Positions 1 through 51,988 of a DNA stretch of 64,000 bases are shown in pieces. This stretch comes from Staphylococcus phage vB_StaM_PB50: the sequence record OR770614.1, one strand, 5' to 3'. Position 1 is the stretch's first letter. Every line of letters starts with the position of its first letter. Made by a program: the position numbers and the translations under genes. The notes beneath the pieces were generated by a model, which was not told the DNA's origin, ran no database searches, and worked only from the letters and a program-made list of their open reading frames with translations.

Positions 1-2281
1 ATATGATTTATTATTATCAGGATTAAATACTATTCCTACTTCACAATATGACTTTGAAGAATTTAATAGTGAAACACCTTACTTAGAATACTTTAATGAT
101 AAGTTCTATAGTCGTAATGTTGGTAAAGGTATTAAAAATGCATTAGATTTAGCAATGGATCCTATTACAGAAGATGTATTAAGAGATTTAAAATTACCTG
201 AAACTATGGTAGAATTATTACTCTTAGCTAATACCATGCTAGAAGATGTAACTGCTAGAGAACACAATGACATGGGAATATATCGTGTACGTGGTCCAGA
301 ACAAGTTAATGCTTTAATATATAAAATGATTGCAAATGCATATAAAGAATATTCAGACTCTTACAATAATAAGAATCCTAAGAATATTTCTGTTAAGCAA
401 GACCAATTAATCAAAACTATAATGGAACAACCTACTGTAGATGAAGTATCTGATCTTAATCCATCTTTAGAGATTGATAAGATGACTTCTGTTACATTTA
501 AAGGTCCAGCAGGACGTAATAATGAACAATCATATGAACCTGACATTCGTTCATACAGTGAAAGTATGCAAGGTGTATTAGGAATATCTAGTCCTGATTC
601 TAATAAAATTGGGGTAGTTAGACAGCTTTCATATAATTCACTAATTAAATCTACTAGAGGTTATACAGATGGTGGTAAAAAAGATGCTAATGACACATCT
701 CTATATACTCCATTAGAACTACTTAACCCATATTCTAGTAGACATGCCGATGATCAAACATGGATAGTCGGCTTAAAAACTATTTAATTGCTGAAATTAC
801 TTTAAAGTTAATCAGCATCAATCAAATTGTTCAACGACTAAATAATAGTTACTAATTATATAATTAGTAATGATATAGTCTCAACTATGTATAAAGTATA
901 TAGAAATAAGATAATGTCTCCACGTATTGGAATGACTGGTACTCAAGCCAAGCACGTAATTCCAACAAAAACTAATAGTAAACCATTAGTTGGATCTGGT
1001 GTTGATAAATCTTTAGCTTATCAATTATCAGATACATTTGCTTTTAAAGCTAAGCAAGATGGTAAAGTATTAAAAATTAATGAGAAAACTGGTTTAATGA
1101 CAGTGGAATATATCAATGGTGAAAAAGATATTGTTGATATATCTGAAAAATTAGCCAAAAACTCTAACTCAGGTTTTTATCAATCTAATAAACTTGATCC
1201 ACAATTTAACGTAGACGACACTTTTAATAAAGGTCAAATACTTGCTAAAAATAATAATTTCTTTGCTGGATCTGGTAAAAATAATGATATTCAATTCACT
1301 TCAGGTAAATTATCTAAAGTATCTGTAGCTAGCTCATATGGTATTATAAATGCCTTTCATTATAGTAATGTAATGTCAAAAAATTATTAATTGCTGAGAA
1401 ATATTAAATTAATCAGCATCTCTATATTTATAGAGTTCAACGACTAAATATAATTATTCATTAATGCTAATGAATTTGATATAGTCTAATCTATTATAAA
1501 AATATAATAGCTAATATAAATGACTTATGAAGATAGTTCTATTATTTCTAGTAGTATGTCTGAAGCAATGTCTACTAAAGTTACTATGAAGAAAACAGTA
1601 AATATTCCATCAAACACAAATATTCAATATATAGTTAAAGAAGGTCAGAAAGTACGTACAGGAGATCCTTTAATGATATTTGAAACTTCATTCGATGAAG
1701 AAGGTATTGGTTCTTTATTAGATAAAATTGGTAGTGAATTTGAACAAGATATTCAAGATATAGCTAACCGAGCTGTTAGAAGTAAATATACAGGTAATAT
1801 TAAAAAGATTAATATTTATTATAATGATGATATTGAAAATATGACTGATAGTTTAGCTAAATTAGTTAATAATTACATTAAAAAATCAAATGATAAATAT
1901 AAAGAATATAAATCTGGAATTAAAAATAATAAAGAAACTTTACCTGGTATTGATGTAGATATCGCTGCAGTTGATAAAATTAATACAGAGAAAATTAAAG
2001 GGGAAAAAGTTGACGGAGTTCTTATTGAAATCTTCACTGAGTATGAAGATGATATGAGTGTTGGAGATAAAATTAGTTTCTATGGAGCTTGTAAAACTGT
2101 AGTTGCTGATGTAACTCCTCCAAATGAATCTCCTTATGCAGAATATAGACCTGATGAGGAAATCGAAGCTGTATTCTCTCCATTAAGTATTGTCTCTCGT
2201 ATGACAGTTGATATTTACATGATGCTATTTACAAATAAAGCTTTAATAGAATTAAAACGTAAAGTAAAAGATATGATTTAA
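1..2281 (+). CDS. multisubunit RNA polymerase beta-like subunit, N-terminal/middle fragment (5' partial; three exons approx 1-772, 917-1339..1354, 1523-2281 separated by two group I introns)
   Basis: The reading frame is open from the window start. The translation aligns with bacterial RpoB blocks: ISSPDSNKIGVVRQLS with ETPEGPNIGLINSLS, HADDQT with EHDDANRA, KPLVGSGVDKSLA with KPLVGTGMERAVA, and GDKISFYGACKTVV...SPLSIVSRM with GDKMAGRHGNKGVI...NPLGVPSRMN. The three ORF-track ORFs (155-787, 887-1390, 1520-2281) are joined in frame only when the intron cores are removed. The gene stops before the C-terminal conserved beta regions, so this is a split beta fragment. Confidence 0.7.
773..916 (+). 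mobile_element. group I intron (ORF-less, about 145 nt) in the beta-like gene; boundaries accurate to a few nt
   Basis: In order: P TTAATTGCTGAAATT (788-800), Q TTAATCAGCATC (810-821), R TTGTTCAACGACTAAAT (829-845), a 10-bp P8 hairpin TTACTAATTATATAATTAGTAA, S GATATAGTCTC (872-882), a P9 hairpin, then a G before exon 2 at 917. The P3 candidate is CTATT/AATAG. There is an in-frame TAA at 785 inside the intron. Confidence 0.7.
1340..1522 (+). mobile_element. group I intron (ORF-less) in the beta-like gene; the 5' end is uncertain (1340-1355)
   Basis: P TTAATTGCTGAGAAA (1388-1402), Q TTAATCAGCATC (1409-1420), R AGTTCAACGACTAAAT (1433-1448), P8 hairpin ATTCATTAATGCTAATGAAT, S TGATATAGTCTAAT (1475-1488), P9 hairpin CTATTATAAAAATATAATAG, and a terminal G at 1522. 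Exon 3 starts at 1523 in frame. Confidence 0.7.
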
Positions 2282-2286
2282 TTCAC

Positions 2287-2319
2287 ATATCCCAATGATT
2301 ATATTGATCATTGGGATAT
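2287..2319 (+). terminator. hairpin terminator after the beta-like fragment (ATATCCCAATGATTATATTGATCATTGGGATAT)
   Basis: Perfect 11-bp stem directly after the stop codon at 2281; a variant of the recurring CCCAATACC...GGTATTGGG hairpin. Confidence 0.5.
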
Positions 2320-2370
2320 TATTATTTAACACAATATTATTATAAATATTAAAGAAATGAGGAAAATATA

Positions 2371-3399
2371 ATGGATTTTAAATCTCTAGAAGAATCTTTA
2401 GATAAAGAATTTGGTTTAGTTAATGAAGATCCTGAACAAAACCTTTTTAATGATTTAAAAGGTGTTATTATAAATCAATATCAAAAAGGAATTGATAGAT
2501 TAACTAAACAAGGATATGCTAATTTTCAACCTAGTAAATTTGTTTATGCGGGAACTAATATAAACTTAGAAGTAAAATGTAAACATTTAGTTAGCGGAGA
2601 TAATACGGAAAGAGACTTTGCTGTAGTTAGAGTTAATAGAACTATTGCATCTGGTGGACAGTATGAAAGTTTAATGAATAGAAATAAATCATCCGTATTT
2701 CCTGAACTTAAAAAGATGAAACCTTCAGATGAAGCTAAAAAAGCTGCTGAAAGTAGAATTAAGAAAGATAAAATGAAAACGGAACTTCAAAAAGATATTG
2801 AAGATATTAGAAATACTAAAGACAAACAAGAGAAAAAAAGAAAGATTAAAGAATATAAAGAGAAATTGAAAAATAGTAAGAAAAAATTAAATGAAGAATT
2901 GAATCGTGATATCGATACTGATAAAGAAGAACCTATTTGTGAAGAGTGTGGTTCTAAAATGTCTCCAAATGAATCAGGTCAATTAGTATGTGAAGATTGT
3001 GGTAACACTGCAGATGTTGCTGTTCAAGAAGGAATTGTTGAACCTGATACTCTTGAAGCGGATTTTGCTAAAGCTTGTATGAATTTTAAAATAAAAGCTA
3101 AAAGTAAAGGTATTAGGATTGATTCGGGTAATGCTGTGGTAGTAGCTAAACGTACTGGTGGCAAAAACGCTGCTTTAGAAGTACCTATTATATATAAAGG
3201 TAAAGATAAAATTAGAAGAATACCTATTGGAATAGTTGCAGATCGTTTCAAAGAAGCTCAGAAATGGGCTCAAAGTAATGGTAATAAATTTGTATCTATC
3301 TTTAAAAAAGCTCCTGATAAAAAACCTGAGATTGATGAAGATGATAAAGTGGTAGAAGAATTAGAAAATAAATTGAATGAAGAATTCTTTTTAAACTAA
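2371..3399 (+). CDS. hypothetical protein with a C4 zinc-ribbon (CEECGSKMSPNESGQLVCEDCGN) and a lysine-rich coiled region
   Basis: RBS GAGGAAAA upstream. The N-terminus is MDFKSLEESLDKEFGL. The zinc ribbon is paralogous to motifs in the 6636-8552 product. Confidence 0.6.
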   Translation: MDFKSLEESLDKEFGLVNEDPEQNLFNDLKGVIINQYQKGIDRLTKQGYANFQPSKFVYAGTNINLEVKCKHLVSGDNTERDFAVVRVNRTIASGGQYESLMNRNKSSVFPELKKMKPSDEAKKAAESRIKKDKMKTELQKDIEDIRNTKDKQEKKRKIKEYKEKLKNSKKKLNEELNRDIDTDKEEPICEECGSKMSPNESGQLVCEDCGNTADVAVQEGIVEPDTLEADFAKACMNFKIKAKSKGIRIDSGNAVVVAKRTGGKNAALEVPIIYKGKDKIRRIPIGIVADRFKEAQKWAQSNGNKFVSIFKKAPDKKPEIDEDDKVVEELENKLNEEFFLN

Positions 3400-3436
3400 T
3401 AATTATTAAAAATAAAAAAAAGGTAGGAAAAAACTT

Positions 3437-4027
3437 ATGGAAGATATTTATATTCAAGAAGGTAAAAAATTAGATAAAGCTAAAAAAGCAGCTAGAAAAT
3501 TATTTTTAGGATTAACTCCTGAAGAAATTAAAGAAAAATTTGCTATACGTGTAGCTAAAAAGAAATATAGTCTTGAAGTTAAAAAAGGTTATAAGATAAA
3601 TTATTCTGACGCTAAATTATTTACACATGCAACTACACGTAAAGATTCACATGCTATAGATTACGAATTAAGTTTAGTGTTTTCTTTTACTAAACCTAAT
3701 GGTAAGAAAAGTTTCTTTGATAGAAGCGTTTTTATTTATAATCGTTTCGGATCAATGCAAGAAGCTGTATCATTCCAAAATAAACATGGAAAAGATTTAT
3801 TAAAAATATTTAAAACGACTAAAGCAGATAAAAAACCTAAGAAATCTAAATCAGTTAATGAAAGTATGGAAGAATTAGGTATTAATGAAGATTTTGAAGA
3901 CAAATTATTTGAATATTTAGAAGGCGTTACAGAGCAAATCTTATCTGAAGAAAATAAAGAAGAAAATGATAATAAAAAAGAATTAGATTCTCTAGAAGAA
4001 TCTTTAGATAAAGAATTCAGTTTATAA
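3437..4027 (+). CDS. hypothetical basic protein; its C-terminus repeats the peptide SLEESLDKEFSL
   Basis: RBS AGGTAGGAAAAAA upstream. The last 12 codons are a near-identical 36-nt copy of codons 4-15 of the previous gene. Confidence 0.55.
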   Translation: MEDIYIQEGKKLDKAKKAARKLFLGLTPEEIKEKFAIRVAKKKYSLEVKKGYKINYSDAKLFTHATTRKDSHAIDYELSLVFSFTKPNGKKSFFDRSVFIYNRFGSMQEAVSFQNKHGKDLLKIFKTTKADKKPKKSKSVNESMEELGINEDFEDKLFEYLEGVTEQILSEENKEENDNKKELDSLEESLDKEFSL

Positions 4028-4032
4028 TAATT

Positions 4033-4064
4033 ATCCCAATACCTAAATTAATAGGTATTGGGAT
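4033..4064. terminator. bidirectional hairpin ATCCCAATACCTAAATTAATAGGTATTGGGAT between convergent genes
   Basis: Perfect inverted repeat. The same hairpin occurs at 16143, 37548 and 52409. Confidence 0.6.
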
Positions 4065-4070
4065 ATTTTA

Positions 4071-5328: not shown

Positions 5329-6597
5329 ATGGGTTATTTTATTAGTAATGATGATCTTCAACCGAAAGATATTGTAAATAGTTATGTATCTTCATATCTT
5401 TCAGGTACTGAAAAGTATAGTAAATTCCAAGCTGGAGCTCCTAGTTTTGTTACTTATTACAGTAAAGATCATGAGAACTCAACCTCAGATAGATCATTAG
5501 ATAATGTTGAAGAAATTGTTGGAGATAATTCTCCACTTAAATATAATAAATTAAAAGATTTTCCTATATATTCTGTTACTGAAATGAATCCTACTATAGA
5601 ATGGGATGAAGAGTGGGGAACTGAAAAAGATTTAGAAAGTGAAGCTGTAATATTACCTGGAACTATTGAACCTCTTCCAGATGATTTTATTGTATTTCAG
5701 TATCAAACTAAAGATAATTTAAATAGTAGAATATATAGAGTAAATAATGTAGAAATGAGTTCATTAGAAAATTCATCATATTATAAAATAAGTTACCAGA
5801 ATTTTAATGTAAATACAGAAGATATTGAAAGACAAGTTTCTAATACTTATAGAACTGTATTTTCTAATATTGGTACAGATAATAAATCATTGATATTAGA
5901 AGAAGATTTCTATCAAGTTAATAATAGTATTAAATACTCCGATGAAATATCTGCGTTAATTATTGATAATTTCTATAATTCTTCATTAAATACATTCATT
6001 TATTATGAAGATGAAATTAGTGCAATAGCAAATATAAAATATATAGATTTAAATTTATCTAGATTTATATACGATAATAATTTATTAGTAAAGTCTAGTA
6101 CCTATTTATCAAACATAATGCCTTATAAAGATAAAAATCCTAAAAATGAAAGAATAAACCAGAAAAATTATAAATATTCTTTATATGAAAGATTGAAAGA
6201 TAGAAAAGAATTACCTAATATAATAACTTTAGATGAAACTAAAGATAATTTTTTAAAAATGTTTAGAGAGAAATATTTAGAGATTAACTTTATGAATAAA
6301 GCTCTTCATGATACAAAAATATTAAATGATATGAATGATTTCACTGAATTATCTAATATAAGTAAGATTAATAGAATTAATGAAGATTATCAAGGTTTAA
6401 ATAGTTTAACTGATCTTGATGAACGTTATAAATTAATTATACTATACTTACAAAAAGATAATATTGATGAAAAAATTCTTGATAAAATATTTAAGTACTA
6501 TGACAATAAATTTGAATTAGATATGGAAGATTATATATTATTACCATGCATATTATTTATTATAAAGAATAATATTGAATCTAAATTTAAAAAATAA
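5329..6597 (+). CDS. hypothetical protein
   Basis: 422-aa ORF with RBS GTGAGGAAAA upstream. Confidence 0.5.
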   Translation: MGYFISNDDLQPKDIVNSYVSSYLSGTEKYSKFQAGAPSFVTYYSKDHENSTSDRSLDNVEEIVGDNSPLKYNKLKDFPIYSVTEMNPTIEWDEEWGTEKDLESEAVILPGTIEPLPDDFIVFQYQTKDNLNSRIYRVNNVEMSSLENSSYYKISYQNFNVNTEDIERQVSNTYRTVFSNIGTDNKSLILEEDFYQVNNSIKYSDEISALIIDNFYNSSLNTFIYYEDEISAIANIKYIDLNLSRFIYDNNLLVKSSTYLSNIMPYKDKNPKNERINQKNYKYSLYERLKDRKELPNIITLDETKDNFLKMFREKYLEINFMNKALHDTKILNDMNDFTELSNISKINRINEDYQGLNSLTDLDERYKLIILYLQKDNIDEKILDKIFKYYDNKFELDMEDYILLPCILFIIKNNIESKFKK

Positions 6598-6635
6598 TAA
6601 ACTGTGAAATATAGAAAATAAAGGAGAATTTTAAT

Positions 6636-8552
6636 ATGTCTAAAAAAATAAATAAAACAGATTTAAATGAAGAAGATATGTTTTTATATGAAGGAAATGA
6701 TTTAGATAGTAATGATGAAGAATTAAAACGAGATATTCCTGAAGATGAAGAAGAAATTGAAGAAACTTTCAATAAATTAATCAATGAAGAAGAAATTGAT
6801 GATGAAGAATCTGATGATCTTGATGAAGTAGAAGATGCTGAAGAAGAAGATGATGTAAAAGTTATTGATTCTGATGATCCTGAATACGATGATCCTATTA
6901 TCTTAGATAAAGATGATGTAGTTGATGATGATACTGCAAATAATGACATTCAAGAGAATCTTTTATTTAATGAAGATGATAAAGAAGATGAAGAAAAAAC
7001 ACAACCTGGTTATACTGAATTAAGAGCTAAATTCTTAGATTCTCAAATGGTAGTTCCTACTACTTTTGGTCCTCATTCAACTTATGGAGTTAATACATCC
7101 AGTGCAAATACTTCAGCACCTTCCGTTAGTGATGGAGGAATGTCAACAGCTAACGGTACAGCTAGTGTTGGAGGAGCAGTTACTGAAACTTATTTATACA
7201 ATAAAGATCCTAAACCTGAATTTACTTTTGTAGATTTAAAAAATGCTTTGTTAGATACTGATGCCGAAGTAGGATATACAATAGGTACACCTGAATCTAG
7301 TGAAGTAAAAAATCAAAGTAAAAATATTGTTGCGAATGAAGCTTATGTAGATGAGGAAAATAAAGCATTTCCTTTTGTTAAAGTAAATGAAAATTACGAT
7401 ACTGCTATTGTAAAAGCTTTTAATGGTGAAGTTAAGAAAATTAGTGAATCCATTTTAAATACTTTTAAATTAGAATCTAAAAGTAGAAAACAAATTTTTG
7501 TTACTAATGAATCAATTGAAACTATGCGTGGATTATTAAATGAAACTGGAAAAATTAAAAACGGTCAACAAATTTGTGAAGATTGTGGTAGTAAACTTTC
7601 TCTTAATGAATCCAATGAATTAATCTGTGAAAATTGTAATAAAGATATAAATGAAGCAATTAAACAAGAAAAAGAAGTTGGAGAAGTTATCTGCAATGAG
7701 TGTGGGGTACAAGAAGAAGTTGACCCTAACGTTAATGAAGCTGAATTAGTTTGTGAAAATTGTGGTTCTGATGATGTTGAATTTAAAACTAAAGTTATTA
7801 ATGAATTTGAAACTAATGAAGAATTTTCACCTAAAGATTTATTAAGATATGCAACTACAATTTCCGAATCATTAGGTAAACGTGTAGATATAGTTGTATC
7901 TAAAGAATCTTATTCACAAATTCCTTCTGTATATGATCCATCTTCTTTACTTGTAGATAAAGTTGACTTTGGTAAAGGATTTAAAAAGGTAATTGTTGTG
8001 GCTCCTAAAGGAAATAAATTACTTAAAGAACTTTATACTAGTAATGAAATTGATTTTGATTCACTTAAAGAAGAATTCAATAGTCAATTAATACAACGTG
8101 TCACTAATGAATCACTAAATGGAATTTTAGAAAACTTTTTAAATCCTTTAGATGAAGTTGATCATAGTGTAAAAGAAGAACTTAATAATAATGAAGTTGA
8201 TCTAGAACAATTAGAAGAATCAATTAATGCTGAAATGAAAAATAAAGATGAAGTATTATATGAAGGTCATCAAGAGTCTTTAGAAGAATTCTATGAAGAT
8301 ATTGTTTTTGAAGCTTATGAAAATGTACCTAATAAAGATGAAGAAAAATTCAAAAAAGCTTTAAGTGAAAATATCAATGATCTTAATATCAATAAAGAAA
8401 TTAAAGTTAGTGAATCATCATTAATTATCAATGGAAAAACTATTGATTTTGAAGATAAAAGTGAAAAAGAATTAAAAGAAATGCTAATGAATGAAAGTAG
8501 ATTAGAACAAAATCTATTGAACGAAAATATTTTTAAAATTATTAATGGTTAG
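6636..8552 (+). CDS. hypothetical protein with a very acidic N-terminal third and three CxxC...CxxC zinc-ribbon units
   Basis: RBS AAGGAGAA. Zinc-ribbon units: ICEDCGSKLSLNESNELICENCN, ICNECGVQEEVD, VCENCGSDD. The unit resembles the ribbon in the 2371-3399 product. Confidence 0.55.
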   Translation: MSKKINKTDLNEEDMFLYEGNDLDSNDEELKRDIPEDEEEIEETFNKLINEEEIDDEESDDLDEVEDAEEEDDVKVIDSDDPEYDDPIILDKDDVVDDDTANNDIQENLLFNEDDKEDEEKTQPGYTELRAKFLDSQMVVPTTFGPHSTYGVNTSSANTSAPSVSDGGMSTANGTASVGGAVTETYLYNKDPKPEFTFVDLKNALLDTDAEVGYTIGTPESSEVKNQSKNIVANEAYVDEENKAFPFVKVNENYDTAIVKAFNGEVKKISESILNTFKLESKSRKQIFVTNESIETMRGLLNETGKIKNGQQICEDCGSKLSLNESNELICENCNKDINEAIKQEKEVGEVICNECGVQEEVDPNVNEAELVCENCGSDDVEFKTKVINEFETNEEFSPKDLLRYATTISESLGKRVDIVVSKESYSQIPSVYDPSSLLVDKVDFGKGFKKVIVVAPKGNKLLKELYTSNEIDFDSLKEEFNSQLIQRVTNESLNGILENFLNPLDEVDHSVKEELNNNEVDLEQLEESINAEMKNKDEVLYEGHQESLEEFYEDIVFEAYENVPNKDEEKFKKALSENINDLNINKEIKVSESSLIINGKTIDFEDKSEKELKEMLMNESRLEQNLLNENIFKIING

Positions 8553-10623: not shown

Positions 10624-11448
10624 ATGAATACAATTAGATTAGGCAATAATCCCATATCTTTTGTTTATCAAGGTAGTAAATTAATATACCCTAACCCAAT
10701 TAAAGATGGATTAGTTTTATGGTATGATTTTAATGGTATGAAAAATATTGATACTAATAAAGGTGTTACCAAAGATCTAACTGGAAGATCTACTGAAAAT
10801 ACACAACATTTTAATTTCCTATATAACTCTGAAAGTGGTTATAATAAAGGATTAAAATTTGATGGTATTGATGATAGAATTATACCTATGGCAAAACACC
10901 CTGACGGAACGGTAAGTCAGTTAGATATGAAGAAAATTAACAATGGTCAAAAATTTTCAGTTGAAATGACACTAAAAATGTCAGATAAACTTATAGAAAA
11001 AGGATCTGAAATTTTTATGACCAGTAAAACATATGGTAGATTTTGGTTACAGTTTATAAAGGACAATAATATAGTTTCTTCTGAGGAATATAGTATTTCT
11101 GCTTCTACTTACTATGGAGCTGAAGGTGGTAGAAGTACCTATTCATTTAGTAAATCAGAAGGATATAAATATGGCGATGAATTTCATCTAGTATCTACAG
11201 TTGATAAAAACGACAAAATTACATTATATGTAAATGGGGTAAAAAAGGATGAGAAACCTTTAAATGATATTACAATTACAACTTCTCAAGAAACAGATTT
11301 TAAAGTATTTTTAGGTCAAGGAGATGCTACAGCTTATTATAGAAGATTTGAACATGAACTCTATTCAATGAAAATTTACGATAGAGTGCTTACTGAACAA
11401 GAAATTCAGTACAACTATAATTTAGAAAAAGAAAGGTGGAACTTGTAA
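10624..11448 (+). CDS. LamG-like domain protein (paralog of 9881-10621)
   Basis: KDGLVLWYDF ... KIYDRVLTEQEIQYNYNLEKERW. The start at ATG 10624 is preferred over the ORF-track start at 10609. Confidence 0.55.
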   Translation: MNTIRLGNNPISFVYQGSKLIYPNPIKDGLVLWYDFNGMKNIDTNKGVTKDLTGRSTENTQHFNFLYNSESGYNKGLKFDGIDDRIIPMAKHPDGTVSQLDMKKINNGQKFSVEMTLKMSDKLIEKGSEIFMTSKTYGRFWLQFIKDNNIVSSEEYSISASTYYGAEGGRSTYSFSKSEGYKYGDEFHLVSTVDKNDKITLYVNGVKKDEKPLNDITITTSQETDFKVFLGQGDATAYYRRFEHELYSMKIYDRVLTEQEIQYNYNLEKERWNL

Positions 11449-11669
11449 TGAAATTTGTAATTGCAAATGTAGAATTTTTTGAGAAATTAGGATATAGTAC
11501 TAAATATTGGAGAAAATCTGTAGATGGAAATAAAACTATTTGTCATCTAGAATATGCTGAAATTTTAGATAATGGAATTCAAGAGGAAGAAAATGTTTTA
11601 GTTGTTGATGCAGCTGAAGCCCAAGATATTATGAATACTGAAGAATGGTCTAGTAAAGAAGAAGAATAA
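11448..11669 (+). CDS. small acidic hypothetical protein
   Basis: RBS AAAGGTGG is 8 nt upstream of ATG 11448 (in frame with ORF-track 11436). Confidence 0.4.
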   Translation: MKFVIANVEFFEKLGYSTKYWRKSVDGNKTICHLEYAEILDNGIQEEENVLVVDAAEAQDIMNTEEWSSKEEE

Positions 11670-11710
11670 GAACAAGTAAATATAATAAAAATAAATGGAG
11701 GAAATTTTTT

Positions 11711-12673
11711 ATGGCTAAAAAACATATCGGTACATGGAACGGTGTTCCTGTATATACTGATTTTTTACCAATAGGTACTCGTAGAGCTGGAGATAAGCTT
11801 AACGGACCTAAATTTATTGTTGCTCATGACACTGGGAACCCTAACACTACAGCACAAAATAATGTAGATTACTACCGTAATTCATATAATATTGATTGGA
11901 ATTATACAGCATCAGCTCATATCTTTGTTGATGATAAAGAATGTATTATCTGTGTTCCTTTAGATGAAAAAGCATGGCACGTTATGTATGGTACACCTAC
12001 AGATAATGCTTGGTATGGAGTGGATGCAAACGATTCAGCAATTGGAGTAGAAGGATGTTACTTCTCAGACCGTAATCGTTCATTAAAATCATTTGATAAT
12101 TACTGTCGTGTATTAGCTTATTTATGTAAAACATATAAGATTAACGCTAGCACAAATATGCCTGGACATCAAGATATTCAGGCAGATAAACAAGATCCAG
12201 GTAACTTATTAGCTGCGTGCGGTATGTCTCGTAGTGTTTCTAATGTAGATAAAAAAGTATTAGCTTATATGAAATCTGGTGTTACTTCGACTGCAAAAGA
12301 CAGTAAAACAACTAAAGTTGCTACTAAAGAAGAAGTTGCTAAGAAAGCTCCAGCTAAACCGGCTAAAACTTCAACTGTAACTTCTAAAACTTGGAAACGT
12401 AATTCTGCAGGAATTCTATGGAAAACTGAAAAAGCTACATTTAAATGTGGTGTTTCAGTAGGTATTAAAACTCGTAAAGGTGGTCCATGGACTGGATGGC
12501 CGCAAGGTCCATTTATGGCTAAAGGAGATACTATTAAATATGATGAAATTCAAGATTTTGATGGTTATATTTGGGTATCAGGTAACTTTAAAGGTCAATA
12601 TGTTTATGTACCGGTTGGTAAATCAACAGGAAATGGTAAACGTGTAGGGCCAGCATGGGGTACATTTAGTTAA
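11711..12673 (+). CDS. endolysin: N-acetylmuramoyl-L-alanine amidase (Amidase_2/PGRP type) with a C-terminal SH3b (SH3_5) cell-wall binding domain
   Basis: RBS GGAGGAAA. The SH3b block is WKRNSAGILWKTEKATFKCGVSVGIKTRKGGPWTGWPQGPFMAKGDTIKYDEIQDFDGYIWVSGNFKGQYVYVP. The amidase region contains a conserved His. Confidence 0.85.
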   Translation: MAKKHIGTWNGVPVYTDFLPIGTRRAGDKLNGPKFIVAHDTGNPNTTAQNNVDYYRNSYNIDWNYTASAHIFVDDKECIICVPLDEKAWHVMYGTPTDNAWYGVDANDSAIGVEGCYFSDRNRSLKSFDNYCRVLAYLCKTYKINASTNMPGHQDIQADKQDPGNLLAACGMSRSVSNVDKKVLAYMKSGVTSTAKDSKTTKVATKEEVAKKAPAKPAKTSTVTSKTWKRNSAGILWKTEKATFKCGVSVGIKTRKGGPWTGWPQGPFMAKGDTIKYDEIQDFDGYIWVSGNFKGQYVYVPVGKSTGNGKRVGPAWGTFS

Positions 12674-16124: not shown

Positions 16125-16142
16125 AAAAAATAATAAAATTTC

Positions 16143-16172
16143 CCCAATACCTAAATTAATAGGTATTGGGGA
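16143..16172. terminator. bidirectional hairpin CCCCAATACCTAAATTAATAGGTATTGGGG between convergent genes
   Basis: Perfect inverted repeat, same family as 4033. Confidence 0.6.
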
Positions 16173-16180
16173 TTATATTT

Positions 16181-27509: not shown

Positions 27510-30143
27510 TTAAGCTCCTTTACTTTTTATTTTATCAGATACTTTCTTAGCTGCAACATTCAATGGAGGTAAACCATGAAATTCTTGAGCAAATGCTACA
27601 CTATCTTGACTGTTAAATTTACTAATAAATTCAGTATTAAAGTCGTAATTTAATTTGTCTTCTTCATACTTAGGAACTGTCATTGTAGATTTATCTTGTA
27701 TTTGAATTTTACCTATATGTCCTTCAGGTGTTATATTATATGCTCTAATAATAGATGGATATAGAGCAGTCAAGTCAAAGTCACAAACATTACTAAATAA
27801 TCTATTAGATCTAATATCTCTACCTTTAACTAAAATATCACCCATACGTTCTATTAATGTCATATTAGCTACAAATCCACCACGTATTTTATCTGCGTTT
27901 GGATCAGATAGTATTTTAGAGTGATTATTACTTAATACATATCCTTGATTTTCAAAGAAGACAGAACTACGATTTCTTAAACAAATAGTTTTCTTAAGTG
28001 CTTTACTTGGTCTCGTTCTAGTCATATCTACAATAGAGAATAATAAATCAAACATATTAGTGTTCTTTTCTATTAAAGCAGTTAATACTGTATCTTTAAT
28101 ATTGTATAGAATAAATGTATAATAATCTCTAAAATGTAAATCAGAGATAGATCCTTCATATACATCCTTTTTAATACCAGTTTCTTTTTCACCAACATCA
28201 TTTAACTTAACTGATTCCATAACACCATTTGGTTTATTTACATTTGCATATAAAGCTAATTGGTCAATCCAGTTAGTGTATGAGTTAGTTTCGAATGTAG
28301 ATGATCTATTAGCTGCATCTGTAGCATTTTTATCTAATCTATAATAAGCTTTTTTATCTTGTAAATCTTTAGAACAGAAATAATCAGCTGGATCTTCTCC
28401 ATTAGCTCTGATTCTTTCAAATATAGCAGGAAAATCGTAATCAAGATTCCACTTTTATTTAAATAGACTGTATCTTATTTGTTATTTAAACAAATTTCCT
28501 TATTCAGTCGTTGAACGTATATTAATACGATGCTGATTAGTTTAAACACTTCCAGCAATTAAAGGAATTTTACACGACCTAGAATTTTGATTAAGCCGTA
28601 CATACATCAGGTTTACTAATTTCATTAATATAATATAAAAATGCTTTTATAATTTCCATTTCAGATTCTAATTCATATATTTCAAATTCTAATCCTAGAT
28701 TACCAATTTTACTATTTTCATTATTATAAATATTATTTAAATCTTCTAACAGTTTACTTTTATTTTCCATAGTTTCTTTATAAGTATCTGTATCATATTT
28801 TAAAGCAAATGTTAAACATTTACGTTTACTCCAGTCAACAGCAGTTATAATATTAACTTCAGCCTCTGCTTTTTCTGGTTCAGGGACATTTATATTAACT
28901 TTATACAATTGTATAAAGATTAGACTATATCTTTTAAATTCAAATATATTTCCATTTAAAATTTTTGTAAGTTTTACTATTTCTATAACCATTTGCAACT
29001 GCTTGTATTCCTTTTCTATCTATATTTAATTCTTCCGCTGCAAATTTAGCACTTTCATATTCTTTTATAATTTTATCTGTTTCTTTATCTATTTGTGCCA
29101 CTGGTTTTCTTCTCTTTTTTAATGATTCTTCCATTTTATCAGTTTTATGAAGATTATTTTCTATAGCATGTAAATTATTTTCTAATACTGACATCCATTC
29201 TAAATTAGATAAATTATTATTTAATTTATTACCGTCAATATGATTAACTACATTTTTATCAATATCTTTATTTTCGATAAAATTCTCTGCAACTAAACGG
29301 TGTATTCTTCTTGTATGCTTCTTATTATTTTTATATAATTGAACATCTTCATAACCATTTTTATTTATTCTTGTCTTTAATACTCTTTCTTTAATAAGCA
29401 TTCTTTTATCTTTACCTTTTAAAGAATCATTATATACATATCTTGAAACCGATTTAACTTTACCAGTATTGGATATTTTATAGTAATTTTCAAAATCTTT
29501 AATGTCTTTCCATATTTCTTTCATTATTTTCCTCCTTTTATAAAGGAAGTATATTTGAATTATATTATTATATTTAGTCGTTGAACACTAAATTAGTGAT
29601 GCTGATTATTTTTAAACTTTTCAGCAATTAATAATTTTTTAATTGAGCTACCTAAATTAACCCAACTGTTTGCGAAGAATCAACTTCTATATCAAAGAAA
29701 ACTATATCAATTCCAACTTTACTATCTAAGTTTTGTTTGATATACTCATTAATATTATAATCTTCAATATTAATATCAGATCCATGAACATTATTCATTA
29801 AATGAAAATCTTTTAATTTTCTAAACTCTTCATAATTACCTGAAGATAATATTCTATCGTATTCTGATTTATCTTGAGCATTACCTGCTTCTCTAACTAT
29901 AGATTTAATAACATCTTTATGTTTACAGTGTACAGTTCTAACTTTTTCTTTAGCCATAGAACCTACAACTATATTAGGTGGTAACCAATGTTCATCTTTA
30001 GTTACATAATAATGCATCATAGGATCTACTATTTCCATATGTTTCTTAGTTCCATCTTCTTCTTTGACTACCATTACTACTTTTTCTTTTTTATTAGATG
30101 TTTCTTTTTTATTCAAATATGTTGATTTTATAAAACGACCCAT
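27510..30143 (-). CDS. family-B DNA polymerase, N-terminal half (exonuclease motif I through polymerase motif A); three exons approx 30143-29660, 28898-28595, 28451-27510 separated by two group I introns
   Basis: Exo I: IVFFDIEVDSS. ESEMEIIKAFLYYINEISKPDV|WNLDYDFPAIFERI matches the E..LL..F...I....PDII.GYN..FD.PYL block. Motif A: CDFDLTALYPSIIRAYNITPE. The gene stops about 70 aa after motif A. Motifs B and C are in a separate gene at 49872-51988. Confidence 0.85.
28452..28594 (-). mobile_element. group I intron (ORF-less, about 143 nt) in polB-N
   Basis: On the minus strand: P TTAATTGCTGGAAGTG, Q AATCAGCATC, P6 GTATTAATATAC, R GTTCAACGACTGAAT, P8 AAATTTGTT..ACAAAT, S ATACAGTCTAT, then a G before the exon TGGAATCTT (WNLDY). 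R and S carry a compensatory pair (GACUG/CAGUC versus GACUA/UAGUC in the other copies). Confidence 0.7.
28899..29659 (-). mobile_element. group I intron carrying an HNH homing endonuclease ORF (inserted between R and S), in polB-N
   Basis: On the minus strand: exon ...GTTGGGT then intron TAATTTAGG..., P TAATTGCTGAAAAG, Q TAATCAGCATC, R GTTCAACGACTAAAT, then RBS AAAGGAGG and the HNH ORF; S AAGATATAGTCTAAT sits after the ORF (plus-strand 28909-28925), then P9 TATACAATTGTATA and a terminal G at 28899. Confidence 0.7.
28940..29524 (-). CDS. HNH homing endonuclease (intron-encoded; NUMOD4-like N-terminus, HNH core, IENR/NUMOD1-like C-terminal DNA-binding motif)
   Basis: NTGKVKSVSRYVY ... HTRRIHRLVAENFIENKD ... 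VVNHIDGNKLNNNLSNLEW and the C-terminal AAEELNIDRKGIQAVANG. Strong RBS AAAGGAGG is 8 nt upstream. Confidence 0.85.
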   Translation of the reverse strand: MKEIWKDIKDFENYYKISNTGKVKSVSRYVYNDSLKGKDKRMLIKERVLKTRINKNGYEDVQLYKNNKKHTRRIHRLVAENFIENKDIDKNVVNHIDGNKLNNNLSNLEWMSVLENNLHAIENNLHKTDKMEESLKKRRKPVAQIDKETDKIIKEYESAKFAAEELNIDRKGIQAVANGYRNSKTYKNFKWKYI

Positions 30144-44775: not shown

Positions 44776-44786
44776 GAATTTTTAAA

Positions 44787-46772
44787 TTATTCTTTAGTTA
44801 AAGAATATAAAGCTTGTACCATATATTTATGATAATTAGACTATATCTTATGATATTTAAATCATTTTCATATTTAGTCGTTGAACAACTTTTATTAAGT
44901 TGATGCTGATTAATTTTGTTTTTCCAGCAATTAATGAAATTTATTGAGAGCATACAAACTTACTCTCATTACCAACTCCACGTATACTATTTCCTGTGTA
45001 GTTTAAGTAATTAGTTTTCTTATTAATAAGTTTATCAGCTTCTTTATTTGCTTCTACAGACCATAAAGAGCGTATTGAAATCATATCCATTTTATATACA
45101 TGTATTTACATATAATTAGACTATATCTTCTTTAGTAATATATTTAGTCGTTGAACAACTTTTATTAAGTTGATGCTGATTATCTTATAGATTTTCCAGC
45201 AATTAATATTATTTAATGATGGTAATATAAAATTTTGCCATCAAAATCTGCACCAAGTGCTTGAGCATATGAATTGTGTATGATTGCAGTATCTAAGAAA
45301 ATATCTTCATCAACAGGATACTCTCTTACTACTTTAGGGTAATCTTTTAATACTATATCATCTAAAATTATTTCTGGAATAGTATCAACAGTAGTTAATA
45401 TTTTAATTTTAGCAGGTGCTACGTTCAAGAAATTTTCGCATTTATTATATTTATATAAGTATTATATAAATTAGACTATATTATATACTATTAAATAGTA
45501 TCATTGCATTTAGTCGTTGAACAATTATATTTAATTGATGCTGATTAACTTTATTAATAGTATTTCAGCAATTAACAATATTTATCAACTTAAATCACTT
45601 TAAGCAGCGACCATTTTATTAATCGGATATCTTGAATACATAACATGCTTATCTTCTACTATTTCGGTTGCAGCAATATAAAGTAAATCAATTACAGTAA
45701 AATCTCTACCCAAAGTTTTTTCAAATAATTTAACTTTATGGCGTTTACCTTCTCTATCATTTACATATATAGGACTAAATCTTTCATTAGGATCTTTAAT
45801 AAAGAATTCTAGCATATTCTTAATAGATTTATCATCGAATTGTTCATATACTTCTTCTAATGATAATTCTTTCTCATCATTTCCAGTAGCTGTTTGGAAA
45901 GCATCTTTATGAAGTTCAATAAAATCAATTATATACTTATTAAAGAATGGTAAGAATAATGTAACTAACTGAGTTAATGGTACACCTAACTCACCAAACT
46001 CAATTTGCATTTCATCCCATTTATTCGAATTAATTTTAGGTGAAGAAATAACAGCACGAGTACTATTATCTACCGTTTTACCCAATATACGTTTTTGCAT
46101 AAAACCAGTTTTACCTGATAATTCTCCTGAAGTAAATTTCTGATATATTTCAAATAATGTATTTTGTATATTATATTTAGTACTGTTAGCAATAAAACCA
46201 AAAGAATTAAAACTAATGGCATCTACAGAACGTATAATAGAAGAATACATATTATTAACTTCTTCAGTATCTTGAATTTCTCCTGAAGTTTCATTAGGAT
46301 TAAAGTCTCTATAAAAAGCAGGTATTACTAGCCATTTATCTACAAATATTTTTTGCTTATCTGTATTTTTAATCATATCAATTTTTTCAGATCTAATACG
46401 AGAATCATTCTTTTTAAATTTTAAATCATCAAATACTTCATATAAGAAATTCAGTCCAGTATCTCCATCTTCTGAAGGAACTAATTGACCTTTTTCTACT
46501 TTAAAATATTCTGAACCCTGAATACATAGTTCAATATTTTTATCTAAATCTTTTAATGCTTTATAAGCTACCGGATTAAGGTATTTATCCTTTAAATTAA
46601 TCCAACCTAAATTAGTTTTTCTTTCAGGAGTACCTATTAAACCAAATATATCATATGAAAATAAACCATCTTCTTTTGGTAATATACCTGAATCAAAGAA
46701 TACAGGATTGGTTACTTCTTTAGCATTTGTATCAGTTATGACTTGTTCAATATCTATCATATCTACTTTCAT
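44787..46772 (-). CDS. multisubunit RNA polymerase beta-prime-like subunit, N-terminal fragment (regions A to D/E including the catalytic DFDGD); four exons approx 46772-45604, 45438-45237, 45087-44956, 44819-44787 separated by three group I introns
   Basis: EDGLFSYDIFG matches ERDGLFCARIFG. ILGKTVDNSTRAVISSPK matches LLGKRVDYSGRSVITVGP. YAQALGADFDG|DMISIRSLWSVEANKEADKLI matches [30 protein letters not shown]. The final 11-codon exon VQALYSLTKE matches VLGLYYMTRD. The frames connect only when the intron cores are removed. Confidence 0.8.
44820..44955 (-). mobile_element. group I intron (ORF-less, about 136 nt), third intron of beta-prime N
   Basis: On the minus strand: P TTAATTGCTGGAAAAAC, Q TTAATCAGCATC, P6 AACTTAATAAAAGTT, R GTTCAACGACTAAAT, P8 AAATGATTTAAATATCAT, S AAGATATAGTCTAATT, and a G before exon GTACAAGCT. 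Confidence 0.65.
45088..45236 (-). mobile_element. group I intron (ORF-less, about 149 nt) inserted between DFDG and D of the beta-prime catalytic motif
   Basis: On the minus strand: exon ...GCAGATTTTGATGGC then intron AAAATTTTATATTACCATCATTAAATAATA, P TTAATTGCTGGAAAATC, P5 ATCTATAAGAT, Q AATCAGCATC, P6 AACTTAATAAAAGTT, R GTTCAACGACTAAAT, S AAGATATAGTCTAATT, ...AAAATG then exon GATATGATTTCA. An in-frame TAA lies 8 codons into the intron. Confidence 0.75.
45439..45603 (-). mobile_element. group I intron (ORF-less, about 165 nt), first intron of beta-prime N (in the NRAPTLH-equivalent region)
   Basis: On the minus strand: ...ATGGTCGCTGC then TTAAAGTGATTTAAG (hairpin CUUAAA/UUUAAG), P TTAATTGCTGAAATAC, Q TTAATCAGCATC, R GTTCAACGACTAAAT, P8 GATACTATTTAATAGTAT, S AATATAGTCTAATT, P9 TATATAATACTTATATA, ...AAATG then exon CGAAAATTTC. 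Confidence 0.7.
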
Positions 46773-46775
46773 TTA

Positions 46776-47066: not shown

Positions 47067-47104
47067 TTTTCATTTTAATTTCCTTTCTCAATGTCAATTT
47101 TTAT

Positions 47105-47153
47105 AAAAAAAAATTATAATAAACCCATGTTTGACTTGAATTTGTCAAACATG
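47105..47153 (-). terminator. rho-independent terminator (CCCATGTTTGAC..GTCAAACATGG followed by a 9-U run on the minus strand)
   Basis: 11-bp stem; A9 tract at 47105-47113 on the plus strand. Confidence 0.65.
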
Positions 47154-47163
47154 GATTATTTGT

Positions 47164-47898: not shown

Positions 47899-47901
47899 AT
47901 A

Positions 47902-49212: not shown

Positions 49213-49271
49213 TTCTTTCCACTCTCCAAATTTATTAAGAATAAGTTTAATTTTAATAGTGACATATTCTC

Positions 49272-49296
49272 GTTTTTATAATATATATTTTAACAT
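49272..49296 (-). promoter_or_regulatory. conserved AT-rich motif (CGTTTTTATAATATATATTTTAACA), candidate promoter for 47902-49212
   Basis: Lies 61-83 nt upstream of the start. Confidence 0.35.
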
Positions 49297-49350
49297 AAAA
49301 TTAAAAATTAAGCAAGAATTTTTATATGAAAAATAATAAATTTTTTCAAT

Positions 49351-49854
49351 CTACATAAAATTCTTTTTAGTTTCTATTTTCATAAATTCTGTTTTATCTA
49401 TCTCTTCAAAAATAGTATAAATATCATTTAAGTAAATATAAAAATAATCATCTTTGTCATTATATTGAAAATTTAAACGAAGATAATTATTAGAATTATC
49501 TTCGTCAATAGATGGACATTCAATTAAACCATGTTTATAAGGCATGTTAGAATCATACTCTATACTATTTTTATTTATATTTATTTCTTTATGAATATCC
49601 AAACTAATAGGAACATATAATTCTGACGCTTTTAGTATTTCTCCATCTTTTTTATTGTATGCTTTACATCTTATAAAAGGTAATATTTCATCACTTAAAA
49701 TATTATATAACATCATAAAAATATCATCATTTTCATCAACTTTAAATACAATATCTTTTTTCATATCTCTATAATATTCAAAGACAGATGATAATTTCTT
49801 TTCAGTTTCAAATAGTTCTTGAAACTTTTTAGGCTTAAATAAAAAATATCTCAT
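49351..49854 (-). CDS. hypothetical protein (C-terminus loosely resembles the family tail: KIETKKNFM)
   Basis: 167-aa ORF. Confidence 0.4.
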   Translation of the reverse strand: MRYFLFKPKKFQELFETEKKLSSVFEYYRDMKKDIVFKVDENDDIFMMLYNILSDEILPFIRCKAYNKKDGEILKASELYVPISLDIHKEININKNSIEYDSNMPYKHGLIECPSIDEDNSNNYLRLNFQYNDKDDYFYIYLNDIYTIFEEIDKTEFMKIETKKNFM

Positions 49855-49871
49855 TAAATATACCTCTTTTT

Positions 49872-51988
49872 CTAAAATTTAACCATATTTGATACGAAAG
49901 AACTATTAGAAGATTCTAACACTTTAACTCCAATAGATTCAATAATATCTTTACCCGGTTTAATGTGATCTTCTATCATTGAATCATAATCAATAAAAGG
50001 TCTAAATTCTTCAGGAATTGTATTACCTTCAACTGCAATTACATTCATTCCATTTTTAACTAATCTTTCGTTTCTAAACACTTCTCTAAATTTATCTAAT
50101 AATTCTTCATCATCAACTTTATCCTTAATATCTCCAAATGATTTAATATTTAATTTGACCATTAAGATATTTGCTGGGAGAGATATTTCTTTATCTGGAT
50201 ACATTAAATTCCATGATAAAGCTGCTCTATAATTCATTTGTGTATAAGGATCTTTATATACTTCTGCATTATTAGCTTTACCAGGTTTTAAGAATTCAAT
50301 ATCACCATTCTCTAATGATTTTTTAATCATCTCTTCAATTTCTTTATATTTACGTATAATTCCAATTCTATCAATACCAGTTTTATTTTCTAAAATATCT
50401 TTTTGTAATATTTCAGTAAATAATTCTCTGATACGTTTATTAGTATTAACTTTTCTAATAGCCATACCTTTAACATCTAAATCTGGAGGTTTAATTAAAT
50501 TACCTTCTTGTTGAATTACTGATGATGCATAAGTTTTCTTTTTATCTGTCGTTAATTGTTTGTCTAATAAAAATTCATTTTTCATTGATATTAACCCTAA
50601 ATGTTCATCTTCTAATCCTAAATCTTTACAGAATCTATGATAAGATAATTCTAGTAATTTAGTAATTTGATAGTTAATAATAGATATATTACCTACACGT
50701 TGTTCTAGTTTATCTTCTAAACCATTTTCTGCAATAGGGAAATCTTCAGGTTTCTTTTCTTTCATTTTTTGATATAATGGATCTAAATGTACGAAGTTAC
50801 TATCTGTCTTTAATATTATATTTTTAAATATAAAATAGACTATATCATATACTCTTTATAAGTATCATTATATTTAGTCGTTGAACAATCATTCTAATTG
50901 ATGCTGATTAATTTAATAAATATTTTCTCAGCAATTAATAATGTGAAACAACTTAAATTACTTTAAGCAGCGACCATGTTATCATAATCGATTGTAAGTA
51001 CACTTCTACGTTTTTTATAATTCATTCTATACATTCTATTGTAATCTTGATAATTATAAATAACCCAATCTTCTAATATATCAAATAATTCATCTAATAA
51101 TGGAATCATATCTTCAGGTGGTTCGTTCGGATCTAAGAAATCTTCTCGTCCAGTCATTTTACTAATTTTATTATCAAATATATCTGTATGATCTAATAAA
51201 CCATAAAGATTATTTTTAAAATAAACTTTGTTTTTCTCATCTTGAGTTAAATTACTAAAGAATTCTTTTAAATCATTTTCCTCATCTTCAGAGAAATTAT
51301 ATTCTACGTTATCCAATAAACCTTTTAATATTTCATTATCAGTAGGAACTGAATTTATCTTAATATCATGATCTTTATATTCTTCTTGACAAATTCTTGC
51401 AATATAATTATAAATTTCACTAATATTCATAAAGAATATTTTACTACCTATAAATCTTTCTAAAGCTATTGCTGAAGTCGTAACAATATCGACACCACTA
51501 TATGTGATAGCTGGACCTGAATAAGGATCATAGAAAATACTATTCCCTTGTATCATAGCACCGTAGTAACTATTAGCCAAAATCTTAATTGTTTTTTGCT
51601 CATTCATGTATTTATGATATTTGACATCATCTACACCTTTACTTATAAACATATTATGTTTAGCTACTTTACGTGAGTCAATGAAGTCTTTTAACATCTC
51701 TGCATTTAAATTTTTTCTTTGTGATTGTGGTTGATAAATCGAACCTGACCCAGTTACTATTAAATTTGAATTAATAACTGTACGTAATAAAGAATCAACA
51801 TTCATTTCTTGACCTGATACTTCTGTCATGACAGGTTTAACATTTTCTTTTACAAACTCTCTACATTCTTTTAATATTTCTTCTTTATCAAAATCCGGAT
51901 TATTCTTTTGAACCATCCATACCAATTGTTCTAAATAACCAGTTAAAGCTCTTTTTCTTTCTTCTTTATTCTTTAATTCTGTTGTCAT
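49872..51988 (-). CDS. family-B DNA polymerase, C-terminal half (motif B, motif C region, thumb); two exons approx 51988-50966 and 50807-49872 separated by one group I intron; separately translated from the N-terminal half
   Basis: Own RBS TAGGAGGTTAG 10 nt before ATG 51988. Motif B KILANSYYGAM with downstream AITYSGVDIVTTSAIALERFI. Across the intron, ...VLTIDYD...|TDSNFVHLDPLY is a motif C-like junction (YGDTDS context). The exact splice junction is not resolved. Confidence 0.8.
50808..50965 (-). mobile_element. group I intron (ORF-less, about 158 nt) in polB-C at the motif C region
   Basis: On the minus strand: ...ATGGTCGCTGCT then TAAAGTAATTTAAG (hairpin), P TTAATTGCTGAGAAAAT, Q TTAATCAGCATC, R GTTCAACGACTAAAT, P8 ATACTTATAAAGAGTAT, S GATATAGTCTATT, P9 TTATATTTAAAAATATAA, ...TATTAAAG then exon ACAGATAGT. 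Confidence 0.7.

Follow-up and report, generated by a model that had tools for sequence, protein, structure and literature searches.

The 64,000-nt stretch of Staphylococcus phage vB_StaM_PB50 analysed here (record OR770614.1; "the window" below means this whole stretch) contains eight short related elements. We conclude, with a probability of about 90%, that these belong to a single, closely related family of group I introns inserted in four essential genes of this jumbo phage of the Machias/AH12 lineage. An original prediction, made from the letters of the window, had described an ordered set of conserved blocks occurring eight times and had read them as group I introns. That identity is supported by the P1 helix found at the corrected ends, by the terminal G of every element, by core helices with covariation and by the reading frames which are restored when the elements are removed.

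Occurrence, boundaries and host genes

The block GTTCAACGACTAAAT was present in the window as seven exact copies and one copy with one mismatch, all where the original prediction had placed its elements. Five further matches each carried three mismatches, while 3.1 are expected by chance at up to three mismatches. The block TTAATTGCTGRRAA accompanied all eight copies. A covariance model (R1) was built from 14 distinct family cores, and with filters off it returned precisely the eight elements from the window with 63-104 bits; the runner-up had 18 bits. The ordered set of eight copies was thus recovered with no copy overlooked and none spurious, and all eight were in sense orientation relative to the interrupted gene, as had been claimed.

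The boundaries were fixed to the single nucleotide by alignment with the uninterrupted alleles of phage S6 (four genes, eight sites). Five of the 5' ends given earlier were 6-45 nt too far 3' and three of the 3' ends were 12-34 nt short. The five 5' ends were misplaced because the in-frame stop which comes first, in many cases the conserved J3/4 UAA, had been taken as the start of the intron, so that P1 and P2 were missed; the three 3' ends had been cut ahead of P9, so P9 was missed as well. Four host genes are interrupted instead of the three first proposed, namely those of the virion RNA polymerase (vRNAP) beta C-terminal part, the vRNAP beta' N-terminal part, the DNA polymerase exonuclease-domain protein and the DNA polymerase catalytic subunit. 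The introns have a G+C content of 19-26%, and their positions and exact lengths are as follows (a caret marks a splice site here and below).

Intron beta1: 752..916, plus strand, 165 nt, in the vRNAP beta (C-terminal part) gene; R1 89 bits.
Intron beta2: 1343..1522, plus strand, 180 nt, in the vRNAP beta (C-terminal part) gene; R1 94 bits.
Intron exo2: 28452..28593, minus strand, 142 nt, in the DNA polymerase exonuclease-domain gene; R1 100 bits.
Intron exo1: 28887..29659, minus strand, 773 nt, in the DNA polymerase exonuclease-domain gene; R1 63 bits.
Intron bp3: 44820..44961, minus strand, 142 nt, in the vRNAP beta' (N-terminal part) gene, ahead of a 10-codon last exon (VQALYSLTKE and stop).
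Intron bp2: 45088..45236, minus strand, 149 nt, in the vRNAP beta' (N-terminal part) gene, inside the catalytic NADFDGD motif (ADFDG^DM); R1 85 bits.
Intron bp1: 45439..45621, minus strand, 183 nt, in the vRNAP beta' (N-terminal part) gene, at RYP^I; R1 92 bits.
Intron pol: 50808..50986, minus strand, 179 nt, in the DNA polymerase catalytic subunit gene; R1 104 bits.

The interrupted genes and the one gene carried by an intron are listed below.

vRNAP beta, C-terminal part: 1..2281, plus strand, exons ..751, 917-1342 and 1523-2281; starts before the window, named after the Machias annotation.
DNA polymerase exonuclease-domain protein: 27510..30143, minus strand, exons 30143-29660, 28886-28594 and 28451-27510; named after the Machias annotation.
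vRNAP beta', N-terminal part: 44787..46772, minus strand, exons 46772-45622, 45438-45237, 45087-44962 and 44819-44787; named after the Machias annotation.
DNA polymerase catalytic subunit: 49872..51988, minus strand, exons 51988-50987 and 50807-49872; named after the Machias annotation.
Predicted intron-encoded HNH homing endonuclease: 28940..29524, minus strand, 194 amino acids (aa), within exo1, with an I-HmuI-like domain set.

Excision of the elements gave open reading frames (ORFs) collinear with those of S6, with zero gaps at all eight junctions and identities of 82-85%. The spliced vRNAP beta' N-terminal ORF has 503 aa, as in S6, with 85% identity and no gap column; the DNA polymerase catalytic subunit has 645 aa compared with 644 aa in S6 in a gap-free alignment, the exonuclease-domain protein has 572 aa compared with 573 aa, and the partial vRNAP beta C-terminal part (644 aa) is collinear with S6 without gap columns. 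The terminal nucleotide is G in all eight elements at ends set independently by the S6 alleles, which bears out the earlier claim that each element ends in G. Intron bp3 and its last exon (44787-44819) are unannotated in Machias, where the annotated coding sequence (CDS) stops inside the intron at the place where its core begins.

Seven of the eight introns had no ORF, as predicted, and the eighth (exo1) carried an HNH gene inside P8. This ORF is enclosed by a 12-bp P8 stem (AAUUCAAAUAUA/UAUAUUUGAAUU), and the lower R1 score of exo1 is due to the insert. Two Pfam matches of the ORF were over the cutoff, NUMOD4 (3.8e-15, 56 bits) and HNH_3 (7.9e-9, 35.5 bits), and two were just under it, I-HmuI_NUMOD-like (3.8e-5, 23.6 bits) and NUMOD1 (0.0027, 18.3 bits). 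With an HNH catalytic motif and NUMOD DNA-binding modules, the product is predicted to be a homing endonuclease of the I-HmuI type.

RNA architecture and covariation

P1 joins the final 3-6 bases of the 5' exon to an internal guide sequence, and U(-1) was opposite the guide G in the minimum free energy (MFE) fold of six of the eight copies. The core has the order P3, J3/4 UAA, P4 (UGCUG), a very short P5, P4' (CAGCA), P6, J6/7 and P7 (GACUA), followed by J7/3 AAU, P3', P8, J8/7 (GAUAUA), P7' (UAGUC) and an optional P9. This agrees with the earlier reading of the blocks as the P, Q, R and S elements, and both helices proposed there, UGCUG-CAGCA as P4 and GACUA-UAGUC as P7, form as claimed. The double change GACUG/CAGUC in the copy at 28452-28594 is also real (pair 73-124: AU in 13 cores, GC in one). 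Short hairpins had been described at the P5, P6, P8 and P9 positions; covariation confirmed P6 and P8, while P5 is hardly a helix, P9 is missing in two copies and P8 consists of a few nucleotides in one. In six copies the guide also pairs with the start of the 3' exon to give a P10 of 6-8 pairs; this was computed for five of them and counted by hand for bp2.

The structures of the single copies can be described briefly. In beta1 the 5' exon ends with GCCGAU^ opposite the guide GUCGGC, giving P1 with U.G in the MFE fold; P2 is absent, P9 has 8 bp and the junction reads D^SPRIGM. In beta2 P1 is GGU^AUU/AAUGCC, a P2 hairpin is present and P9 also has 8 bp. Intron exo2 has ACGGCU^UA/UAGGUCGU as P1, GACUG/CAGUC as P7 and AUUCUA/uggaau as P10, and bp3 has GAGAGU^/GCUCUC as P1 and a P10 of 8 bp. 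Intron bp1 lies after CGAU^ and has the guide UGGUCG and the P2 helix GCUUAAA/UUUAAGU, which mark a subfamily common to bp1 and pol. In pol P1 is CGAU^UAUG-AUAA-CAUGGUCG, and both P2 and P9 are present. Since bp1 and pol are homologous and agree in guide and P2, a P1 with U.G is predicted for bp1 too.

Covariation was determined in a plain MAFFT alignment of the 14 cores, and partners slid by 1-3 columns were used as controls. Standard pairs filled 98.3% of the cells compared with 26-55% in the slid controls, both sides had changed in 15 pairs (P3 was compensatory in five of its six pairs), and the covariation score was 0.50 compared with at most 0.08 in the controls. Larger samples gave similar values, although these alignments are model-fitted and so biased in favour of the structure: 97.6% of the cells were paired in 45 distinct Staphylococcus-phage copies (28-56% in slid controls) and 94.6% in 38 distinct IMG/VR copies (33-47%), where 17 of 21 pairs were compensatory. 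RNAalifold returned P4, P6, P7 and P8 from the unfitted alignment without structural input; P3 was not returned alongside P7 because the two form a pseudoknot. Thus P3, P4, P6, P7 and P8 are backed by strong covariation, with many compensatory changes in P3, P6 and P8.

The Rfam model Intron_gpI (RF00028) was aligned to the pol element, searched alone as 231 nt, over model positions 1-253 with identical helix assignment. The P, Q, R and S elements AAUUGCUG, AAUCAGCA, GUUCAACGACUAAA and GAUAUAGUCU were aligned to the Rfam consensus AAUUGCGGgAAA, AAuCCGCAGC, GUUCAaAGACUAAA and AAGAUAUAGUCu. Group II introns have six domains, among them domain V, and usually an ORF for a reverse transcriptase/maturase. 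No group II intron family was found by the Rfam scans of the whole window and of the pol element alone, and this result, the group I core and the small size (142-183 nt) rule them out as a candidate. That Rfam scans do not see these introns explains the statement of the DC4 authors that their genome gave no introns with Rfam (PMC10638138).

Reduction in size

The elements are strongly reduced. P5 has about 3 bp, P2 and P9 occur in some copies and not in others, and P7.1/7.2 and P9.1 elements are absent; exo2 and bp3, with 142 nt each, have no P2 and no real P9. A P8-reduced turn C-N3-4-G of 5-6 nt was seen in seven of 48 model matches at five or more different sites, including beta', the beta N-terminal part and the prohead protease, in the window phage, Machias, MarsHill and LY01. 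Since this form recurs in essential genes of viable phages, it is argued that the reduced form works.

Degenerate fungal introns in ribosomal DNA (rDNA) have about 60-70 nt and are without a core. In the abstract of one review the size range of group I introns is 250-500 nt (PMC10964413), and the paper on the group I intron database gives no minimum length. Our literature search, made with limited access to the literature, found no documented smaller group I intron with a complete core.

The splice site of bp2

In the window and in Machias the bp2 site reads gauggc^AAAAUUUUAUAUU-A-CCAUCA. The exon pairs with CCAUCA, so that C(-1) is opposite the A of the guide UUAUAUU-A-CCAUCA, and the UUAUAUU preceding this A pairs with gauauga of the 3' exon (P10 of 7 bp); the P8 position holds just CUAAAG. 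The ADFDG site of MarsHill and LY01 reads gacggu^..UAUAUU-G-CCGU with an ordinary U.G, and the change from GGU to GGC at the bp2 site is synonymous. Splicing after GAU, GAUG or GAUGG was considered and rejected, as it would give a frame shift, a DVD motif or loss of the terminal G. C(-1) with terminal G is the sole choice giving ADFDGDM.

A C.A wobble can reportedly replace U.G in the Tetrahymena intron (Doudna et al. 1989). The same splice site with U.G or with C opposite A among related phages makes a natural version of a classic mutational experiment. According to Tourasse et al., virtually all group I introns splice after U, and the verified exception is the group B IStrons, which splice after G (PMC4227781).

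Distribution of the family in related phages

The window is about 97% identical with the Staphylococcus jumbo phage Machias, in a range of 95-99%, and 80-96% identical with AH12, LY01, MarsHill, Madawaska, S6, DC4, PALS_2 and SA1. With one intron as query, blastn found 29 places in Machias, 29 in AH12, 32 in LY01, 12 in Madawaska and 10 in MarsHill, and no copy in S6, DC4, PALS_2 or SA1. R1 gave 30 matches of at least 52 bits in the complete Machias genome, in which the joined CDS annotations imply about 23 introns. Occupancy varies even between genomes of 96-97% identity: the pol gene has a second intron in Machias and one in the window. These differences in presence and absence among phages of 80-97% identity, together with about 30 copies in Machias, support the earlier view of one recently spreading family.

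At the exo2 site, Machias has an endonuclease-bearing intron of about 1 kb (locus L006, ~2163-3220) with an extended, G+C-richer P5, whereas the window has the 142-nt form with related P1 and guide; a Pfam search with the endonuclease ORF of the Machias intron gave no match. The core of bp2 in the window resembles the core at the bp3 site of MarsHill and LY01, and P1 remains site-specific, so cores seem to have been exchanged between sites.

Further family members were noticed at some other places. In Machias (locus L094), family matches at 2837-2941 and 3024-3128 (106 and 96 bits) lie in a 620-nt "intergenic" gap directly after the annotated end of the non-virion RNA polymerase (RNAP) beta' N-terminal gene, which suggests unannotated introns with small terminal exons. 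In LY01 (OR836606; locus L100, ~6310-6700) two tandem family introns interrupt the NADFDGD motif of vRNAP beta' with the 9-nt micro-exon TTTGACGGT (F-D-G) between them, and the upstream one is a member of the subfamily which targets CGAU. Directly 3' of three family introns in Machias there are TnpB genes (L095 29006-30414, minus; L098 9565-10987, plus; L098 31938-33355, plus). They have OrfB_IS605 and Cas12f1-like TNB domains in an IStron-like arrangement, and none was found in the window.

In IMG/VR, the Q...R pattern was found in 86 stretches on contigs mostly of 200-400 kb. The strict anchor pattern had missed these loci since their P element differs, and the covariance model was used instead: R1 gave 277 matches on the IMG/VR loci, which overlap, many of them on contigs of 360-400 kb, with identical Q, R and S blocks. 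The contigs may belong to putative Jug phages, whose sizes fit. One locus (L053, IMG/VR 3300008672_000001, 10881-12243, minus) has seven family cores in 1.4 kb, one per about 210 nt, and a segment between cores encodes FDGDTVSIR; an RNAP beta' gene of an uncultured phage of about 400 kb is thus divided into micro-exons of about 30-50 nt. Another array of family cores lies at L013 3199-4202.

Guide sequences and proposed spread to new sites

The subfamily with the guide GUCG and the P2 hairpin CUUAAAGUnAUUUAAG occupies four different sites, always after CGAU and with flanks which are otherwise dissimilar. The 5' flanks are the following.

Site pol: acaAUCGAU^
Site beta' RYPI: uaUCCGAU^
Site gyrB (Machias): gaUGCCGAU^
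Site beta' ADFDG (LY01): gguGCCGAU^

Flanks which share CGAU alone match the prediction for reverse splicing, in which 4-6 bases complementary to the guide are needed, and do not match a homing endonuclease with a site of 14-40 bp. We regard guide-directed ectopic insertion as the most likely route to new sites, a preference which we hold tentatively and at slightly less than even odds. Cognate sites would be served by recombination and by the one HNH endonuclease. According to the review of Hausner, there is no direct evidence for mobility by reverse splicing, and the best circumstantial case is that of rDNA introns at two sites (PMC3984707). If guide-directed spread is true here, no natural evidence to date would speak more clearly for this long-proposed, unproven pathway than this family, which lies in protein-coding genes instead of rDNA. 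The joint claim, that the 142-nt copies are possibly the smallest natural group I ribozymes with a complete core, that some members do with a P8 of 5-6 nt, that one copy of the family uses a C.A splice site and that about 30 copies per genome arose by guide-directed reverse splicing, is rather doubtful when all its parts are taken together.

Proposed splicing scheme and alternative explanations

The data given above show the boundaries, the restored frames, the helices with their covariation, the membership in one family, the copy number and the agreement of guide and target. From the anatomy of the elements we infer a scheme for catalysis and autonomous splicing, and we propose a route of transposition. 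The transcribed RNA would fold into a group I core, in which P1 would give the splice site a U.G wobble (in one copy C opposite A) and P3-P8 and P4-P6 would pack around P7. Free guanosine would attack the 5' splice site, P10 would let the guide position the 3' exon, and exchange of the terminal G would join the exons to give intact polymerase reading frames. The exo1 copy would use its I-HmuI-type HNH endonuclease for homing at the DNA level. The ORF-less copies would most likely reach occupied sites by recombination between co-infecting phages, and new sites by reverse splicing into RNA, copying to DNA and recombination.

Several observations weigh against this interpretation. The predicted stability of P5 is zero in five of the eight copies, the helices are very A+U rich, bp2 has no real P8 and is spliced after C instead of U, and some copies may need the help of proteins for splicing. 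P1 was not recovered in the MFE fold of bp1, which picks another pairing, and P10 is weak in bp1 and pol. The condition under which the earlier reading was to fail, the lack of a covariance-model match, gave a borderline result: RF00028 gave no match on the whole window at the gathering score or at E<=10, and the full-length match of the pol element searched alone had 26.7 bits (E 3.4e-5), under the gathering score of 50, which is a curated detection threshold and not a biological feature. As for the spread, selection for splicing competence would also leave a match between guide and target after any route of insertion. A phage reverse transcriptase gene was found by tblastn in nine of nine relatives, including the intron-poor S6, DC4, PALS_2 and SA1, and does not correlate with the intron load; its presence in all nine gives no support to reverse transcriptase as the cause of an intron burst.

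The same features would fit group I-derived introns which are past self-splicing, so that the 142-nt exo2 and bp3 and the P8-reduced bp2 would fold and splice only with help from a protein of phage or host, or from other intron copies in trans. The rudimentary P5, the loss of P9 or P8 in some copies, the low G+C content, the sub-threshold Rfam score and the non-U splice site of bp2 all speak for this, and the lack of plaques at 37 C (Korn et al., bioRxiv 10.1101/2020.12.14.422802) would be compatible with fragile RNA folds, which is speculation. We consider it unlikely, though it deserves serious attention, because the catalytic core (P3, P4, P6, P7, J8/7 and the R and S blocks) is intact and clearly covarying, and the P8-reduced form recurs at no fewer than five sites in essential genes of four viable phages. 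R1 also matches the putative Jug contigs, and small introns are spliced in Jug phages (PMC12880540), which does not imply autonomy. The TnpB genes directly after three Machias copies raise another explanation, in which the elements are non-autonomous, MITE-like derivatives of IStrons multiplied as DNA by TnpA/TnpB from full-length copies, and ORF-less IStron derivatives are indeed known (PMC4227781). It is improbable, since no TnpB gene lies within or next to any of the eight copies in the window and no TnpA was seen, the insertion sites have no fixed pentanucleotide of IS605 type, and each site fits its own guide; moreover, TnpB by itself does not transpose (bioRxiv 10.1101/2023.11.20.567912).

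Finally, there might be no splicing, if the polymerase genes were truly split into separately translated pieces and the element were an intergenic regulatory or repeat sequence. Beta and beta' of jumbo phages are naturally divided into several genes (PMC7598289), each element has an in-frame stop, and six of the eight end in AUG, four of these in frame with the next exon. We find this hardly credible. No Shine-Dalgarno sequence lies ahead of the intron-terminal AUGs, the pieces would be as small as 10 and 42 aa, one break would fall inside the ADFDG^D motif, which binds Mg, the genes for these proteins are uninterrupted in S6, and the RNA shows covariation and the complete group I architecture. 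The missing Shine-Dalgarno sequence and the absurdly small pieces led us to reject separate translation starting at these AUGs. The 3' ends concerned are 916, 1522, 28887, 45439, 45088 and 44820, and the AUG there may be a constraint of P9.0 or of the 3' splice site.

Implications

Intron-riddled polymerase genes are already known in the AR9/Machias clade, and small dense group I introns in gut jumbo phages. The novelty implied by the original prediction is thus not upheld, because seven of the eight introns were already implicit in the Machias record and introns of this kind have been published for Jug phages. The new points are descriptive and hypothesis-generating: the mini-intron family with its covariance model, the near-absent P8, the natural C.A site, one unannotated intron and the guide-matched occupancy of multiple sites.

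The family forms a natural deletion series for folding studies and the engineering of circular RNA: P2 and P9 are each present or missing, P8 is a helix or a turn of 5 nt, and the lengths are 142-183 nt. The members of this series must work because they are located in essential genes of viable phages. Phages which are intron-rich and intron-free and can co-infect would make reverse splicing experimentally testable. Because standard Rfam scans miss all eight introns, genes in such phages are mis-annotated as fragments.

As a separate observation, the window at 16075-16178 (plus strand) gave a weak match to the Rfam greA leader (33.5 bits, cutoff 60, E 0.04) with a terminator-like hairpin at its end. 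It is probably just an intrinsic terminator.

Comparison with known systems

In the records of Machias, MarsHill and Madawaska (MW349128, MW248466, MW349129) the genes are given as joined CDSs with exon boundaries taken from protein alignment with AR9. The introns there are the same elements, and seven of the eight window introns lie inside CDSs which are joined in Machias. Korn et al. described multiple genes as disrupted by introns, as in AR9, SPO1 and K-like phages (bioRxiv 10.1101/2020.12.14.422802); these introns were inferred from protein alignment alone, without RNA class, structure, family relationship or copy number. The same authors reported that phages of the Machias group neither form plaques nor propagate efficiently at 37 C (bioRxiv 10.1101/2020.12.14.422802). 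Temperature-sensitive splicing of about 30 A+U-rich introns could contribute to this defect, which is pure speculation.

The Bacillus jumbo phage AR9/PBS1 belongs to a related clade with uracil-DNA and two multisubunit RNAPs, and it reportedly has self-splicing introns in RNAP and replication genes, some with homing endonucleases (Lavysh et al. 2016). No nucleotide similarity with AR9 was detectable, as blastn with one window intron matched only five Staphylococcus phages, and the AR9 introns occupy different genes and sites.

The intron in the DNA polymerase gene of SPO1/SP82, which encodes I-HmuI, and the introns in orf142 of Twort are about 250 nt or longer when their ORFs are not counted, and they have the peripheral elements of subgroup IA2. 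They are like the present introns in their location in essential genes of Firmicute phages, in the I-HmuI-type HNH endonuclease and in the presence of several introns per gene; the window elements differ in having no IA2 peripheral elements. The textbook minimal self-splicing group I ribozyme is the biochemically proven Azoarcus pre-tRNA-Ile intron of about 205 nt, which is G+C rich and has tetraloop-receptor contacts. It shares with the window elements a compact core, P1-P9 and the lack of large peripheral domains, whereas the latter are 20-30% shorter, have 19-26% G+C and do not lie in a tRNA.

IStrons combine a group I intron with TnpB (PMC4227781), and the three Machias members with TnpB immediately 3' resemble them in this respect. 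The window copies differ, since none of the eight has an IS200/IS605/IS607 module and there is no common IS target motif. Jug phages have 2,513 small group I introns, on average 18.5 per genome and about 206 nt long, without ORFs and in essential genes, and metatranscriptome reads support splicing for 37 of 76 introns (PMC12880540). Their host belongs to another phylum and the window introns are shorter (142-183 nt). The Q, R and S blocks are common to the window introns and the putative Jug copies in IMG/VR, and the latter form a distinct subfamily with P4 AAUGCUG and P3 UUCUAU/AUAGAA.

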